Below, piece after piece: positions 18,103 through 57,590 of a DNA stretch of 64,000 nucleotides. This DNA is from Escherichia phage phiEC1, in the sequence record KY608965.1. One strand, 5' to 3'. Every line of letters begins with the position of its first letter. Position 1 is the stretch's first letter. Under the pieces are notes generated by a model. It was given only the letters and a program-made list of their open reading frames with translations, was not told the DNA's origin and did no database searches. Both the position numbers and the translations under genes were made by a program.

Positions 18103-18330
18103 TTATTTTTTAATCAAATTGACATAAAACTCGGCGTCTTCCGGGTGCATGCCTTCACAGTATTCTTCAACCATGAACTTCTTAACGGCTTCATAAGGAC
18201 CACTCAGATTAAGCTCAGTTGTCCAGAACTTGGAATCTTGGACTGAATCGATACGAACTTCAGGGTGACGGTTGCGAATAACTTCTTCGGTGTATTCATA
18301 ATCAACAACATCAATACTAACTGTAGCCAT
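18103..18330 (-). CDS. Hypothetical protein
   Basis: 75 aa ORF. Confidence 0.4.
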   Translation of the reverse strand: MATVSIDVVDYEYTEEVIRNRHPEVRIDSVQDSKFWTTELNLSGPYEAVKKFMVEEYCEGMHPEDAEFYVNLIKK

Positions 18331-18349
18331 TTTGTTTCTCCTCTTGATT

Positions 18350-18389
18350 TGATGTGATTACTATAACATAAACTTACTTAGATGTAAAT
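18350..18389 (-). promoter_or_regulatory. Early promoter cassette (PeSL-like), degenerate
   Basis: gatgtgattactataacataaac with gtaaat at 18384-18389. Confidence 0.4.
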
Positions 18390-18542
18390 TATTTCAACGT
18401 CACCTTTAGCGGCTTTATAACCTTCAGCCCAAGATACAACAGAGTTTTTATCTGAGGATTCAAATTCAGGCATTGGACTTTCACCAATATTCACACAATA
18501 TGTTTCTTCATTTTCATCGAACCAAATAATTAAAGTAGTCAT
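18378..18542 (-). CDS. Small hypothetical protein (54 aa)
   Basis: Manual translation MTTLIIWFDENEETYCVNIGE...; leader and first codons identical to the ORF at 55176. Confidence 0.35.
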   Translation of the reverse strand: MTTLIIWFDENEETYCVNIGESPMPEFESSDKNSVVSWAEGYKAAKGDVEIIYI

Positions 18543-18554
18543 TTTGTTTACTCC

Positions 18555-18600
18555 TCTGTAGTTGATAAGTTTATAGTATCACCGTCCTTGGTGCTTGTAC
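18555..18600 (-). promoter_or_regulatory. Early promoter/leader cassette, duplicated at 55195-55236
   Basis: gtttactcctctgtagttgataagtttatagtatcac nearly identical to 55183-55222. Confidence 0.45.
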
Positions 18601-33863: not shown

Positions 33864-34860
33864 TTCAAGTGTTATCTATCGTGCAATAGTTACATCAAAA
33901 TTTAGAACAGAGAAAATGCTGAATTTTTATAATTCGGTTGGGGATGGAGATGATAAGAACTCCATTTATATTACGTTTGGACGTTCAGAGCCTTGGGCGT
34001 CAAATGAAAATGAGGTGGGCTTCGCCCCACCTTATCCTACAGATTCTGTTCTTGGTGTTACTGATATGTGGACCCATATGATGGGCACCGTTAAAGTTTT
34101 ACCTTCAATGTTAGATTCTGTTATTCCTAGGCGTGATTGGGGAGATGTGCGATATCCAGACCCTTACACGTTTAGAATTAACGATATAGTCGCATGTAAT
34201 ACTGCTCCGTACAACGCGACAGAAGTTGGAGCCGGTTGGTTAATTTACCGTTGTTTAGACGTCCCTGACGTAGGGCTCTGTTCAATAGAATCTTTAGATA
34301 ATAAAGATGAATGTCTTAAATTAGGTGGTAAATGGACCCCGTCTGTTCGTTCTATGTCTCCTCCTGAAGGCAGAGGCGATGCTAATGGGGTTATCGAAAC
34401 CGGTGATGGATATATTTGGGAATACCTTTATGAGATTCCTGCCGATGTGTCAATTAACCGTTGCACTAATGAGTATCTTGTAGTTCCATGGCCGGAAGAA
34501 ATTAAAGAAGACCCTACGCGTTGGGGATACGAAAATAACTTAACTTGGCAACAAGATGACTATGGCTTGATTTACCGTGTTAAAGCCAATACGATGCGGT
34601 TTAAAGCATATTTTGATTCTGTTTATTTCCCTGAGGCAGCTTTGCCTGGTAACAAGGGTTTTAGACAGATATCAATTATCACAAACCCATTAGAAGCTAA
34701 GAAAAATCCAAATGACCCTAATGTTAAAGCAGAAAAGGATTATTACGACCCTAGAGACCTGCAACGTCATTCTGGTGAAATGATTTATATGGAAAACCGA
34801 CCACCTGTTATTATGGCAATGGACCAAACAGAAGAAATTAACATTTTGTTTATGTTTTAA
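33856..34860 (+). CDS. 8: Baseplate wedge protein gp8
   Basis: 334 aa, same length as T4 gp8. Confidence 0.85.
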   Translation: MNDSSVIYRAIVTSKFRTEKMLNFYNSVGDGDDKNSIYITFGRSEPWASNENEVGFAPPYPTDSVLGVTDMWTHMMGTVKVLPSMLDSVIPRRDWGDVRYPDPYTFRINDIVACNTAPYNATEVGAGWLIYRCLDVPDVGLCSIESLDNKDECLKLGGKWTPSVRSMSPPEGRGDANGVIETGDGYIWEYLYEIPADVSINRCTNEYLVVPWPEEIKEDPTRWGYENNLTWQQDDYGLIYRVKANTMRFKAYFDSVYFPEAALPGNKGFRQISIITNPLEAKKNPNDPNVKAEKDYYDPRDLQRHSGEMIYMENRPPVIMAMDQTEEINILFMF

Positions 34861-34863
34861 TTA

Positions 34864-34888
34864 GGGAGCCTTCGGGCTCCCATTTTTG
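34864..34888 (+). terminator. Rho-independent terminator after gene 8
   Basis: GGGAGCC-TTCG-GGCTCCC hairpin followed by ATTTTTGT. Confidence 0.6.
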
Positions 34889-34892
34889 TATC

Positions 34893-34900
34893 TATAAATA
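34893..34900 (+). promoter_or_regulatory. T4-type late promoter TATAAATA for gene 9
   Basis: TATAAATA 33 nt upstream of the gene 9 ATG. Confidence 0.55.
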
Positions 34901-53285: not shown

Positions 53286-54854
53286 ATGACTACTATCAAA
53301 ACTAAAGCTCAGCTCGTAGACAAATGGAAAGAACTGCTGGAAGGTGAAGGCCTGCCGGAAATCGCTAATAGCAAGCAGGCTATTATCGCTAAAATCTTCG
53401 AAAACCAGGAAAAAGATTTCGAAGTATCCCCTGAATATAAAGACGAGAAAATCGCTCAGGCATTTGGTTCTTTCTTGACCGAAGCTGAAATTGGTGGTGA
53501 CCACGGTTATAATGCTCAGAATATTGCAGCAGGTCAAACCTCTGGTGCAGTAACCCAAATTGGGCCGGCAGTTATGGGTATGGTTCGTCGTGCTATTCCT
53601 AATCTGATCGCTTTTGATATTTGTGGTGTTCAGCCTATGAACAGCCCGACCGGTCAGGTATTTGCTCTCCGTGCAGTATATGGTAAAGACCCTATCGCTG
53701 CTGGCGCTAAAGAAGCTTTCCATCCGATGTATGCCCCAGACGCGATGTTCTCTGGTCAGGGTGCTGCTAAGAAATTCCCAGCTCTGGCTGCTGACACTAC
53801 TACTGTTGTAGGTGATATCTATACTCACTTCTTCCAAGAAACTGGTACTGTATATCTGCAAGCTTCTGCTATCGTAACACTTGATTCTGGTGCAACTGAT
53901 GCAGCTAAATTAGATGCAGAAGTTAAGAAACAAATGGAAGCTGGTGCACTGGTAGAAATCGCTGAAGGTATGGCTACTTCTATCGCTGAACTCCAGGAAG
54001 GTTTCAACGGTTCTACCGATAACCCATGGAATGAAATGGGCTTCCGTATCGATAAACAAGTTATCGAAGCTAAATCTCGCCAGCTGAAAGCTGCTTACTC
54101 TATCGAATTAGCACAAGACCTCCGTGCAGTACACGGTATGGATGCTGATGCTGAACTGAGCGGTATTCTGGCTACAGAAATTATGCTAGAAATCAACCGT
54201 GAAGTTGTTGATTGGATTAACTACTCTGCACAGGTTGGTAAATCTGGTATGACCCTGACTCCGGGTTCTAAAGCTGGCGTATTTGACTTCCAGGACCCGA
54301 TTGATATCCGTGGTGCTCGTTGGGCCGGTGAAAGCTTTAAATCTCTGTTGTTCCAGATTGATAAAGAAGCAGTTGAAATTGCTCGTCAAACCGGCCGTGG
54401 TGAAGGTAACTTCATTATCGCTTCCCGTAACGTAGTTAACGTACTGGCTTCAGTTGATACTGGTATTTCTTACGCTGCACAGGGCCTGGCTTCTGGTTTT
54501 AATACCGACACTACTAAATCTGTGTTTGCCGGTGTACTTGGTGGTAAATACCGCGTATACATCGACCAGTATGCTAAACAGGATTACTTCACCGTTGGTT
54601 ACAAAGGCGCTAACGAAATGGATGCAGGTATTTACTATGCTCCTTACGTTGCACTTACCCCACTGCGTGGTTCCGATCCTAAGAACTTCCAGCCGGTAAT
54701 GGGCTTTAAAACTCGTTACGGTATCGGTGTTAACCCGTTTGCTGAAAGTTCCCTGCAGGCTCCAGGTGCTCGCATCCAGTCCGGTATGCCGTCTATCCTG
54801 AACAGCCTTGGTAAGAACGCTTACTTCCGCCGTGTATATGTAAAAGGCATCTAA
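53286..54854 (+). CDS. 23: Major capsid protein gp23
   Basis: 522 aa; colinear with T4 gene 23; strongly biased codon usage typical of a highly expressed gene. Confidence 0.95.
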   Translation: MTTIKTKAQLVDKWKELLEGEGLPEIANSKQAIIAKIFENQEKDFEVSPEYKDEKIAQAFGSFLTEAEIGGDHGYNAQNIAAGQTSGAVTQIGPAVMGMVRRAIPNLIAFDICGVQPMNSPTGQVFALRAVYGKDPIAAGAKEAFHPMYAPDAMFSGQGAAKKFPALAADTTTVVGDIYTHFFQETGTVYLQASAIVTLDSGATDAAKLDAEVKKQMEAGALVEIAEGMATSIAELQEGFNGSTDNPWNEMGFRIDKQVIEAKSRQLKAAYSIELAQDLRAVHGMDADAELSGILATEIMLEINREVVDWINYSAQVGKSGMTLTPGSKAGVFDFQDPIDIRGARWAGESFKSLLFQIDKEAVEIARQTGRGEGNFIIASRNVVNVLASVDTGISYAAQGLASGFNTDTTKSVFAGVLGGKYRVYIDQYAKQDYFTVGYKGANEMDAGIYYAPYVALTPLRGSDPKNFQPVMGFKTRYGIGVNPFAESSLQAPGARIQSGMPSILNSLGKNAYFRRVYVKGI

Positions 54855-54878
54855 TCTTAATTGATTAAATCTTATTTT

Positions 54879-54910
54879 GGGAGACTTCGGTCTCCCATTT
54901 TTGGTTTTAT
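54879..54910 (+). terminator. Rho-independent terminator after gene 23
   Basis: GGGAGAC-TTCG-GTCTCCC hairpin followed by ATTTTTGGTTTT. Confidence 0.7.
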
Positions 54911-55176
54911 TTCTGTGCAATTTCGATGTAAGTTTTCAAAATATTTTGCCAATTAGGCATACCTTCTTGGACATATGCCGGAGAACCGTCTTTGTTTTTG
55001 AATGATGCAAGTTTATCAGTGGCCCAATAACCTTTAGCTCGAGCTTCAGAATCAACTTTCATCCATACTTTGTTGAAGGCATTACCATTAACTTTTGCAC
55101 CATATTTTTCTACTAACTTAACTGCTTCAGCTTCCAGAACTTTTAAAGTATCTCGTAAGAAACGTGCTTTAGTCAT
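54907..55176 (-). CDS. Small hypothetical protein, antisense-oriented in the 23-24 intergenic region
   Basis: 89 aa; occupies the position where T4 carries segD but shows no endonuclease motif; own early-type promoter cassette upstream. Confidence 0.45.
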   Translation of the reverse strand: MTKARFLRDTLKVLEAEAVKLVEKYGAKVNGNAFNKVWMKVDSEARAKGYWATDKLASFKNKDGSPAYVQEGMPNWQNILKTYIEIAQK

Positions 55177-55194
55177 TTTGTTTACTCCTCTGTA

Positions 55195-55236
55195 GTTGAT
55201 AAGTCTATAGTATCACATACCAAATACGTTGTAAAC
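55195..55236 (-). promoter_or_regulatory. Early promoter/leader cassette, duplicate of 18555-18600
   Basis: gtttactcctctgtagttgataagtctatagtatcac with gtaaac at 55231-55236. Confidence 0.45.
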
Positions 55237-55242
55237 AATCTT

Positions 55243-55250
55243 TATAAATA
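55243..55250 (+). promoter_or_regulatory. T4-type late promoter TATAAATA for gene 24
   Basis: TATAAATA 27 nt upstream of the gene 24 ATG. Confidence 0.55.
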
Positions 55251-55276: not shown

Positions 55277-56560
55277 ATGAGTAAAATCCAAAAATTATTG
55301 CGTGAATCTACAACGTCTACTAGCAACTCAATCGGTCGCCCAAATCTCGTTGCTTTGACTCGCGCTACGACTAAATTAATATATTCTGACATTGTGGCAA
55401 CACAAAGAACTAATCAACCTGTTGCTGCTTTTTATGGTATTAAATATCTTAACCCAGACAACGAATTAACATTTAAAACTGGTGCTACTTATGCAGGCGA
55501 AGCTGGATATGTAGACCGAGAAAAAATTACTGAGCTCACAGAAGAATCAAAAGTCACACTAAATAAAGGTGATTTTTTCAAATATAATAATATCGTCTAT
55601 AAAGTGTTAGAAGATACGCCGTTTGCAGATATTCAGGAAAGTGATCTAGAATTAGCTCTTCAGATTGCGGTCGTTCATTTAAAGGTACGGCTATTTTCAG
55701 ATGCAGCGGTAACAAGCAAATTTGAAAGCTCTGGTAGCGAAATTTCTGATGCAAGATTCCAGATTAATAAATGGCAAACTTCAGTCAAATCTCGTAAACT
55801 TAAAACCGGCCTCACGGTTGAATTAGCGCAAGATTTAGAAGCGAATGGATTTGATGCCCCTAACTTCTTAGAAGATTTGCTTGCTACTGAAATGGCTGAT
55901 GAAATTAATAAAGATATTCTTCAGTCTTTAATTACTGTATCTAAACGTTATAAAGTTACTGGAATTACTGACACCGGATTTATTGACTTGAGTTATGCAT
56001 CTGCTCCGGAAGCAGGTCGTTCGTTATATCGAATGGTGTGTGAAATGGTTTCGCATATCCAAAAAGAGTCAACTTATACTGCAACGTTTTGCGTAGCTTC
56101 AGCTCGTGCAGCTGCTATTCTTGCTGCTTCTGGTTGGTTAAAACATAAGCCGGAAGATGATAAGTATCTTTCACAAAATGCTTATGGATTCTTGGCAAAT
56201 GGATTACCTCTTTACTGCGATACCAACAGTCCGTTAGATTATGTTATTGTGGGTGTTGTAGAAAATATCGGCGAAAAAGAGATTGTAGGGTCCATCTTTT
56301 ATGCTCCATACACTGAAGGAATGGATTTAGACGACCCGGAACATGTCGGTGCATTTAAAGTTGTAGTTGATCCGGAAAGCTTACAACCGTCTATAGGTTT
56401 ATTGGTTAGATATGCTTTATCAGCAAATCCTTACACAGTAGCAAAAGATGAAAAAGAAGCGAGAGTAATTGATGGCGGGGACATGGATAAAATGGCAGGA
56501 CGTTCAGACTTGTCTGTTTTACTCGGTGTTAAATTGCCTAAAATTATTATAGATGAATAA
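55277..56560 (+). CDS. 24: Capsid vertex protein gp24
   Basis: 427 aa, same length as T4 gp24. Confidence 0.9.
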   Translation: MSKIQKLLRESTTSTSNSIGRPNLVALTRATTKLIYSDIVATQRTNQPVAAFYGIKYLNPDNELTFKTGATYAGEAGYVDREKITELTEESKVTLNKGDFFKYNNIVYKVLEDTPFADIQESDLELALQIAVVHLKVRLFSDAAVTSKFESSGSEISDARFQINKWQTSVKSRKLKTGLTVELAQDLEANGFDAPNFLEDLLATEMADEINKDILQSLITVSKRYKVTGITDTGFIDLSYASAPEAGRSLYRMVCEMVSHIQKESTYTATFCVASARAAAILAASGWLKHKPEDDKYLSQNAYGFLANGLPLYCDTNSPLDYVIVGVVENIGEKEIVGSIFYAPYTEGMDLDDPEHVGAFKVVVDPESLQPSIGLLVRYALSANPYTVAKDEKEARVIDGGDMDKMAGRSDLSVLLGVKLPKIIIDE

Positions 56561-56591: not shown

Positions 56592-57590
56592 TTATGATAC
56601 TAATTCAATCCATGCAGGACGCAGAACATCTTGCACCATTCTAATTAATTCTTTCTTAACAAGACTCGGGTCATTGGATGATGTTAATACAATACCTTCA
56701 CGAGAAGTTTCTTCTAGAATATCTTTAACAGTCAATCCAGTCACTTTACCGAAATCTTTTGGCGTTACAGTCCCAATCTTAGAAATCACATTGTTAACAC
56801 GATTTAGTGTAACATAACAAGCTAGAACATCAAGCAAGTTTTTGTCAATTTCAGTTAATTGAACCTTAGTTTTAATAGGCTTATCAGACTTTTTCTTTTC
56901 ACTGAATTTAGAGTTCTTGCACTTAATCGCTACACGAGTACCGTTTGGCAGCCATTTAGGGAAACAAGGCTTCAGAACATAACCTTCTGCAGTATTATCA
57001 CCAATAACATTAGCATCAAATACACAATTATTTGCTTCGACAAGGTCTTCCGATGCCGTAGCGTTATAAGCGGCTAAGACGGAATCAAGGTCATTTGGAA
57101 TCATGATAAGAGAATCAAATGTTCCACGTCCAAGCATTGGTGCCATTTTAAAGCCGAATTCATTACAGAAATCTTGCATTTCGTAATCGGTCAAATACGT
57201 ATTATCACCACTTTCTGTATTGATAATGATATCGAACACATAAAAATCTTTTTCACCGTAGTCAACACCTTTCTGGATTCCACCACCAGCGAATTCACCG
57301 AATACTTGATATGATACGGCTCGAGCTGTGTACATGACTTCTTGAACGGCTTTAATAGCCTTATCATACTTCTTGAGTACGATTTCATAACCATAAAAAT
57401 CTTCTGCTGGAAGAATAGGGCCTGTGCGCTTGGCGCATGTGACGTTGTCACGTTCAATTATTAACGAGAAGTTGGTCCCGTGGATTTTCTCACGTGCTAC
57501 CCAAACACCAGTAGTCAAACCATTAGTGTAGAGTTTTTCAATAAACTTAGAGTTGTAGTGGTTTTCAAGACTGCTGTATTTCTTAAACAT
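56592..57590 (-). CDS. rnlB: RNA ligase 2
   Basis: 332 aa; [12 protein letters not shown]...[14 protein letters not shown] ligase motif I; matches remembered T4 Rnl2. Confidence 0.9.

Follow-up and report, generated by a model that had tools for sequence, protein, structure and literature searches.

The gap between genes 23 and 24 of Escherichia phage phiEC1 harbours a conserved 89-aa gene on the strand opposite to both neighbours, which is probably to be read as an early gene with a leader copied from the RB69ORF145c (ORF145c) locus through modular shuffling of the kind described for promoter-early stem-loop (PeSL) cassettes. The stretch analysed (sequence record KY608965.1; 64,000 nucleotides), referred to as the window, belongs to Mosigvirus, the RB69-like T-even phages, and its 23-24 region is 99.0-99.8% identical to those of many Mosigvirus genomes (FP43, mogra, SHSML-52-1). 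The genes in this part of the window are as follows.

53286-54854, plus strand: gene 23, major capsid protein (522-aa ORF; annotation in 99%-identical records), the convergent neighbour upstream
54907-55176, minus strand: 89-aa ORF with an ATG start, phrog_6003, the intact form of RB69ORF188c/189c
55277-56560, plus strand: gene 24, capsid vertex protein (427-aa ORF; annotation in relatives), the divergent neighbour
56592-57590, minus strand: rnlB, flanking

An earlier note on this DNA had placed an 89-aa minus-strand ORF without an endonuclease motif between genes 23 and 24, and both the ORF call and the absence of any GIY-YIG Pfam match agree with it. The ORF matches the phrog_6003 profile over its full length (E=2.1e-45; residues 1-89 against positions 1-90 of 90). 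By tblastn, it is present at at least 95% identity in approximately 117 phage records and at 30-38% identity in approximately 119 further records, including Dhakavirus and Gaprivervirus. In WG01, VR20, and four uncultured T4-like contigs, a homologue likewise occupies the 23-24 gap, in the orientation opposite to both neighbours; the alleles of the four contigs are 61-71% or approximately 34% identical to the window ORF, and syntenic homologues span 30-71% identity overall. The family alignment contains 12 invariant residues, and dN/dS is 0.07 between WG01 and LF82 and 0.15 between the window and the P0006 gene. The AlphaFold2 model (pLDDT 89) comprises three helices with a β-hairpin between helices 2 and 3. 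Given this synteny, purifying selection, residue conservation, and confident fold, the ORF is a real protein-coding gene, conserved in position across several T-even genera.

In the RB69 reference (AY303349; L004 3792-4032), the ORF is split by frameshifts into RB69ORF188c and RB69ORF189c, and in phage mogra (L002 2808-3076) it is likewise frameshifted into mogra_94/95. These split ORFs are either pseudogenes or sequencing errors; hence, either the gene is dispensable in some hosts or conditions or the records contain errors.

The 10.1-kDa protein is basic (pI 9.6), hydrophilic, and soluble, with no hydrophobic segment. A Pfam search with it returned only DUF4859, below the cut-off; NCBIfam and PADLOC searches gave no match; a search against PDB sequences gave no lead (best E 0.08); and a Foldseek search of the model against BFVD returned only a member of its own family. 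An exhaustive profile search with the 89-aa family returned nine proteins. Two giant Big_2/filamin-repeat proteins (P0022 and P0024) were considered as remote homologues and rejected as repeat-summed noise (hhalign probability 1.2%). The gene is already annotated, as a hypothetical protein for which the annotation gives no function, and literature searches for RB69ORF188c, 189c, and 145c and for Mosigvirus together with segD found nothing. As a weak guess drawn from class alone (small, basic, soluble, early, and fast-evolving), the protein might be dispensable and act early as an accessory factor, binding a macromolecule of the host or of the phage.

In T4, the 23-24 gap carries segD, likewise on the strand opposite to 23 and 24. 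Four states of this gap were found among relatives.

Gap empty: most Tequatroviruses and Klebsiella T4-likes
Gap with segD only: T4, RB18, and others (53 records)
Gap with the small ORF only: most Mosigviruses including the window, Dhakavirus WG01, and Gaprivervirus VR20
Gap with the small ORF and segD: LF82-type Mosigviruses and IME08-type Dhakaviruses

The distribution of these states across genera implies that the long-term resident of the gap in Mosigvirus, Dhakavirus, and Gaprivervirus is the small ORF, not segD, and that the small ORF is no replacement for segD. Two tandem gene 24 paralogues adjoin the small ORF in Dhakavirus, Gaprivervirus, and uncultured relatives (L006, L007, L019, and L021); the window and T4 have one gene 24.

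The shared location raises the possibility that the 89-aa ORF is a decayed remnant of a SegD-type homing endonuclease gene, or encodes a partner of such an enzyme (a regulator or immunity factor). The ORF occupies the segD gap, and in approximately 31 Mosigvirus records and in IME08 and IME341 an allele lies immediately 5′ of segD in the same orientation, no separate promoter being identified between the two. Furthermore, a short motif of the protein resembles SegD residues 91-113. This resemblance is insignificant, being confined to a 17-aa match to T4 SegD at E=0.02, with hhalign probabilities of 0.3-1.2% and no GIY-YIG signal, and decay from segD was rejected on that account. The ORF also occurs without segD in more than 100 Mosigvirus records and in the WG01 and VR20 genomes, while T4 has segD without the ORF. 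T4 SegD and the LF82 homologue match GIY-YIG, HTH, and NUMOD families weakly, T4 SegD alone rising above a curated cut-off (SegE_GIY-YIG, 27.8 vs 25 bits); the 89-aa ORF has neither a GIY-YIG domain nor a C-terminal DNA-binding (HTH/NUMOD) region. Descent from, or partnership with, SegD is therefore extremely unlikely. Judged from these comparisons, the 89-aa ORF is no alternative to segD but the older resident of the gap, coexisting with segD in relatives. The motif in question, G.P..V...P.(W/Y)(Q/R)N(I/M)L, lies in residues 62-84 (E=0.02; hhalign at most approximately 1%) and is taken as chance.

The small ORF is preceded by putative early expression signals, which adjoin the late promoter of gene 24.

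55243-55250, plus strand: late promoter TATAAATA for gene 24, back to back with the early promoter, annotated in SA79RD and predicted in RB69 as Pl:109573 (PMC1524935)
55207-55235, minus strand: T4-type early (sigma-70) promoter, with -35 TTTACA at 55235-55230, a 17-nt spacer, and a TG-extended -10 TACTAT at 55212-55207
55185-55190, minus strand: Shine-Dalgarno (SD) sequence GAGGAG, containing GGAG, 8 nt before the ATG at 55176-55174

The promoter scan scored the element at 55235-55207 as 9/12 with TG, and an early promoter is annotated here in SA79RD. In RB69, early promoters were predicted in 2006 for the 89-aa gene (Pe:109605), ORF145c (Pe:72567), and frd.3 (Pe:72354) (PMC1524935, supplementary file 2). 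The position of the early-promoter element, adjoining TATAAATA, is conserved in all lineages examined including T4, and the block TATTTATAAAG-TTGTTTACA is kept at this position in every one of them. The expression "early-promoter-driven", used in the earlier note, thus stands here for consensus and conservation only, from which the 89-aa gene is inferred to be transcribed early. In the proposed mechanism, early transcription by host sigma-70 RNA polymerase would start at this promoter, which faces away from the late promoter of gene 24, and the leader of approximately 27 nt, predicted to be unstructured (z-score +0.3 to +0.4) and carrying the strong GAGGAG, would support efficient translation. 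RegB shuts off certain T4 early genes by cleaving their transcripts at a GGAG within the SD sequence. Because the SD sequence of the 89-aa gene contains GGAG, the transcript is a plausible target of RegB-type shut-off.

A promoter-like element was also seen in T4 at the homologous place (NC_000866, approximately 107253-107281, minus strand; L008 4254-4282), reading TTTACA-17-TATTAT with an upstream TG and scoring 10/12. It lies 21 nt upstream of the segD ATG and is flagged here, a review having stated that no segD-specific promoter could be identified (PMC2988022).

At its other end, the small ORF converges on the terminator of gene 23.

54878-54912, plus strand: gene 23 intrinsic terminator, consisting of an 8-bp stem with a TTCG loop (54878-54897) and a T-tract (54898-54912)

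The hairpin core GGGAGAC-TTCG-GTCTCCC at 54879-54896 is followed by ATTTTTGGTTTTATTT, and its stem is conserved through compensatory changes in T4 and VR20. The stop codon of the 89-aa ORF (54907-54909) lies within the T-tract, just as the earlier note had described, so that the hairpin is 10 nt downstream of the stop on the minus strand. The description of the gene as antisense is a loose one, since the ORF overlaps only the terminator tail and the coding sequence of neither gene 23 nor gene 24. The region 54861-54910 resembles the terminator of another late gene at 34846-34895 (GGGAGCCTTCGGGCTCCC followed by a T-tract), with 78% identity over 50 nt (family D7).

The folding z-score of the hairpin is -4.5 on the plus strand and -4.8 on the minus strand, and the terminator scan detected it on the plus strand only. 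On the minus strand, the tail of the hairpin is AAAAUAAGAUUU, with no U-tract, so that the minus-strand transcript has no Rho-independent terminator here. That transcript would enter the gene 23 hairpin, which, given the missing U-tract, would probably serve as a 3′ stabiliser or partial stop rather than as an efficient terminator. With the hairpin also unscored as a minus-strand terminator, it is plausible that some transcripts continue into gene 23 at its 3′ end.

This arrangement allows readings in which RNA, not protein, is the product that matters. In one of them, the ORF is non-functional, and the early promoter fires an antisense ("anti-late") RNA that extends into gene 23 from its 3′ end and holds down capsid mRNA made too early or in excess; the plausible read-through, the conservation of the promoter even in T4, where the cargo gene differs, and the frameshifted ORFs of RB69 and mogra, which fit an RNA-only role, all speak for it. 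An incidental reading frame would be difficult to reconcile with purifying selection (dN/dS 0.07-0.15), with residues that remain invariant across approximately 30% identity, with the confident fold, and with a strong SD sequence at optimal spacing. Furthermore, in most Tequatroviruses and Klebsiella T4-likes the empty gap has no room for the promoter, and antisense regulation therefore cannot be essential. Taken together, an RNA-only function is quite improbable, while an RNA role alongside the protein could exist. A broader version regards the 23-24 early promoter as the regulatory device itself, with the small ORF or segD as its passenger; antisense RNA from early transcripts that read into the 3′ end of gene 23 could then delay or trim major-capsid mRNA, and the shared leader would co-regulate two small early proteins. 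This version, which draws on the minus-strand hairpin without a U-tract and on the element upstream of T4 segD, is considered a long shot. The reading of the locus as an early protein-coding gene with a copied leader is preferred, and the evidence for copying is given below.

The leader of the 89-aa gene recurs approximately 36.6 kb away, in front of ORF145c.

55170-55216, minus strand: leader repeat copy A, GTGATACTATAGACTTATCAACTACAGAGGAGTAAACAAAATGACTA, 46/47 identical to copy B
18536-18582, minus strand: leader repeat copy B, with one private G-to-A change (TATAAAC)
18378-18542, minus strand: 54-aa acidic ORF, the RB69ORF145c homologue (phrog_5461, E=1e-35), served by copy B
18328-18343, minus strand: partial third copy, limited to the 3′ end of the leader (GAGGAGAAACAAAATG, then GCTA), before frd.3, found by regex scan; partner repeat in the PhAPEC2 deletion of ORF145c

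The repeat comprises GTG-ATACTAT (the TG-extended -10), the transcribed leader, the SD sequence GAGGAG, the 8-nt spacer, ATG ACT, and one more base. The earlier note had reported that the promoter, leader, and first two codons were nearly identical to those of a 54-aa ORF at 18378-18542, and had named substantial divergence between the two leader copies as grounds against its reading. The 54-aa ORF is present on the minus strand as reported, the copies do not diverge, and the near-identity applies to the -10, leader, SD sequence, and ATG ACT; the claim fails for the -35 hexamers and spacers, which lie outside the repeat and show no relationship between the loci. At 18.5 kb, the promoter (TGTACA-17-TACTAT) is below the threshold of the promoter scan, although its RB69 counterpart is Pe:72567.

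The two-match result was obtained in none of 100 dinucleotide-preserving shuffles, and no third site for the 43-nt core was found in the window within 14 substitutions. Identity rises to 47/47 between the two copies of one metagenomic Mosigvirus contig, OBCQ01000004 (L014/L018), and the copy at the RB69 ORF145c locus is identical to copy A of the window. Searches for the leader in IMG/VR (one locus) and JGI metagenomes (five loci) recovered only the same two ORF contexts; with the exact leader confined to these, it is no widely mobile cassette.

The likeness of the two leaders could alternatively reflect common selection towards an early-promoter and translation-initiation consensus, with no copying at all. 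T-even early promoters do share an extended consensus: the 86-nt promoter and leader yields hundreds of 76-83% matches before unrelated early genes in other phages, and seven early cassettes in the window form a family with 60-80% identity. Nevertheless, the leader pair is 98-100% identical over 47 nt, whereas other family members reach at most 83%. The identity has a sharp edge at the TG of the extended -10 and leaves out the -35, the element under the stronger selection. In sister lineages, the orthologous loci function with quite different leaders, and the same 47-mer was looked for before unrelated Mosigvirus early genes and found in two contexts only. Convergence on a consensus is thus very improbable as an explanation of the repeat, and copying is the reading retained here.

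As a separate observation, early promoter cassettes recur on the minus strand at no fewer than seven sites between 438 and 22155 of the window, in the e-tRNA-ipI hyperplastic region, with 60-83% identity. They share AGTTTACA...TATGTTATAGTAGTCCTATCAAA and the SD sequence (families D1/D2).

Orthologous loci in sister lineages provide the evidence for copying. At the 23-24 locus, the alleles closest to the 89-aa ORF (P0004, P0005, and P0006) and P0016 have a different leader, TGTTATTAT-GCTTCTA...GGAGA. In Tequatrovirus RB6 and EP01, ORF145c has a -35 and spacer orthologous to those of the window, and the leader there reads TATAGACTTATCAAAACAAATACAGAAAACGGAGAAATAAATGACTA. That leader shares TATAGACTTATCAA...TACAGA...GGAG...ATGACTA with the Mosigvirus leader, which is derivable from it by two small deletions. 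Since orthologous loci of sister lineages have different leaders, the comparison indicates that the stretch reaching from the extended -10 into the third codon has been homogenised between the two Mosigvirus loci, i.e., copied. The shared leader is accordingly a derived state at the 23-24 locus and a recent copy, and a short recombination or gene-conversion patch most likely copied it from the 18.5-kb locus into the 23-24 gap.

Of the two directions, transfer from the 18.5-kb locus to the gap is the likelier, albeit not proven. In the reverse case, the leader would be native to the 23-24 gap and would have been pasted before ORF145c; the 23-24 leader of Dhakavirus WG01 begins with TACTATAGACCTATCAA and has the same -10 TACTAT as the Mosigvirus leader, while Tequatrovirus ORF145c has TATTAT. 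Reverse copying agrees poorly with the GCTTCTA-type leader that P0016 and all of the nearest 89-aa alleles (61-71% identity) have, and with the distance of just two small deletions between the Mosigvirus leader and that of Tequatrovirus ORF145c. The native ATGACTA of ORF145c is moreover kept in the shared leader, and most 89-aa homologues start with MNK or MKK. An origin in the gap is accordingly unlikely, though less so than the other alternatives, and transfer from the ORF145c locus is preferred.

The ORF145c protein itself is 96-98% identical at the aa level in Tequatrovirus (T2, RB6, and PST), where it is located between e.8 and e.6 (RB6: L012 1501-1677). Recent horizontal transfer, which this identity might suggest, was rejected because Tequatrovirus and the window are approximately 86% identical over the ORF145c DNA, within the 80-90% of its neighbours; strong purifying selection appears to be the better explanation.

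Comparison among related genomes further indicates that the leader acts as a recombination joint. PhAPEC2 has no ORF145c, and the promoter and leader of that gene are fused directly to the start codon of frd.3 (L011 1269-1336). The joint falls within GAGGAG(T)AAACAAAATG(A/G)CTA, which is present in the window before both ORF145c and frd.3 (18328-18343). SF, CCU7, and ESh27 show the same gap of approximately 213 nt in the BLAST match as PhAPEC2. Among Mosigviruses, ORF145c is an insertion/deletion polymorphism.

For the 23-24 locus, the informative genome is that of the Mosigvirus LF82-5 (PV660449; L009 2569-3498). Followed from gene 24, its homology with the window extends across the promoter and leader and breaks directly after GAGGAG; it resumes at the terminator, only the last approximately 70 nt of gene 23 being divergent. 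The SD sequence and these last nucleotides of gene 23 form the two boundaries of the import. The insert codes for a small-ORF allele of the Dhakavirus type (32% identity) and, after it, for a 219-aa GIY-YIG protein with 57% identity to T4 SegD. This segD is found at a minimum of 95% identity in approximately 31 Mosigvirus records, directly downstream of the divergent allele in those checked, and Dhakavirus IME08 and IME341 have the same tandem of small ORF and segD with 88% SegD identity. Comparison with segD-containing relatives, which the earlier note had suggested, thereby places the LF82-type breakpoint exactly at the SD sequence, and the view of the duplicated leader as a footprint of recombination gains support from the sister-lineage leaders, the PhAPEC2 joint, and the LF82-type replacement.

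By these comparisons, the conserved promoter/SD leaders and the common terminator are the homology patches for deletion, insertion, and swapping of small early ORFs in this phage group. The same joints bounded the import of the divergent allele and segD into some Mosigviruses, and that import may have been driven by SegD cleavage or by ordinary homologous recombination. T4 SegD has been reported as non-homing, going by the reference-list entry for Sokolov et al. 2018 in PMC10448857. The locus is a clean natural case, with well-defined limits, of T-even phages moving small early genes by means of short identical leaders and a common terminator, and leader and terminator joints operate even within the otherwise rigid head-gene block.

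With respect to known systems, the gene is identical to RB69ORF188c/189c and to the phrog_6003 hypothetical proteins, from which it does not differ except that it is split by frameshifts in the RB69 reference; more than 100 GenBank Mosigvirus records contain the same gene as an intact 89-aa hypothetical protein. The locus resembles that of T4 segD in the gap, the orientation, the conserved terminator hairpin, and the promoter-like element near the gene 24 late promoter, and differs from it in that the cargo of the window is unrelated, with 89 aa and no GIY-YIG domain, and that both genes form a tandem in some relatives. The 89-aa gene further shares an early promoter, a GGAG-containing SD sequence, and an unstructured leader with the T4 early genes that RegB cleaves; unlike those genes, it lies in a window without regB, and it is a putative target by its sequence alone.

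The closest parallel is provided by the PeSL cassettes of T4-like phages (Arbiol et al. 2010, PMC2839356; Comeau et al. 2014, PMC4122927). As in PeSL cassettes, a unit of early promoter, SD sequence, and start codon is repeated before small non-essential ORFs, the repeats being patches for indels and replacements. The window promoter (TTTACA-17-TACTAT) fits the T4/PST consensus TTTACW-N17-TAYWAT (PMC2839356; PMC4122927), GAGGAG-8 nt-ATG lies inside the repeat at its 3′ end, and the element contains joints of both kinds, i.e., the PhAPEC2 deletion and the LF82-5 replacement. Unlike PeSL cassettes, neither promoter has a terminator-like hairpin upstream, as determined by scanning; the promoter at 55 kb is preceded by the late promoter of gene 24, in divergent orientation, and the only hairpin is downstream of the ORF. 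The near-identity is likewise restricted to the stretch from the -10 to +7 of the coding sequence, excluding the -35, and there are just two copies, one of which lies within the conserved head-gene block and not in a hyperplastic region. The leader repeat therefore works like a PeSL without being a canonical one and is best described as a -10/leader/SD patch. Current concepts are unchanged by the 89-aa gene and its leader, an ordinary case of regulatory-cassette shuffling; the event is a further instance of the published PeSL-type shuffling, at promoters that had already been predicted in 2006.
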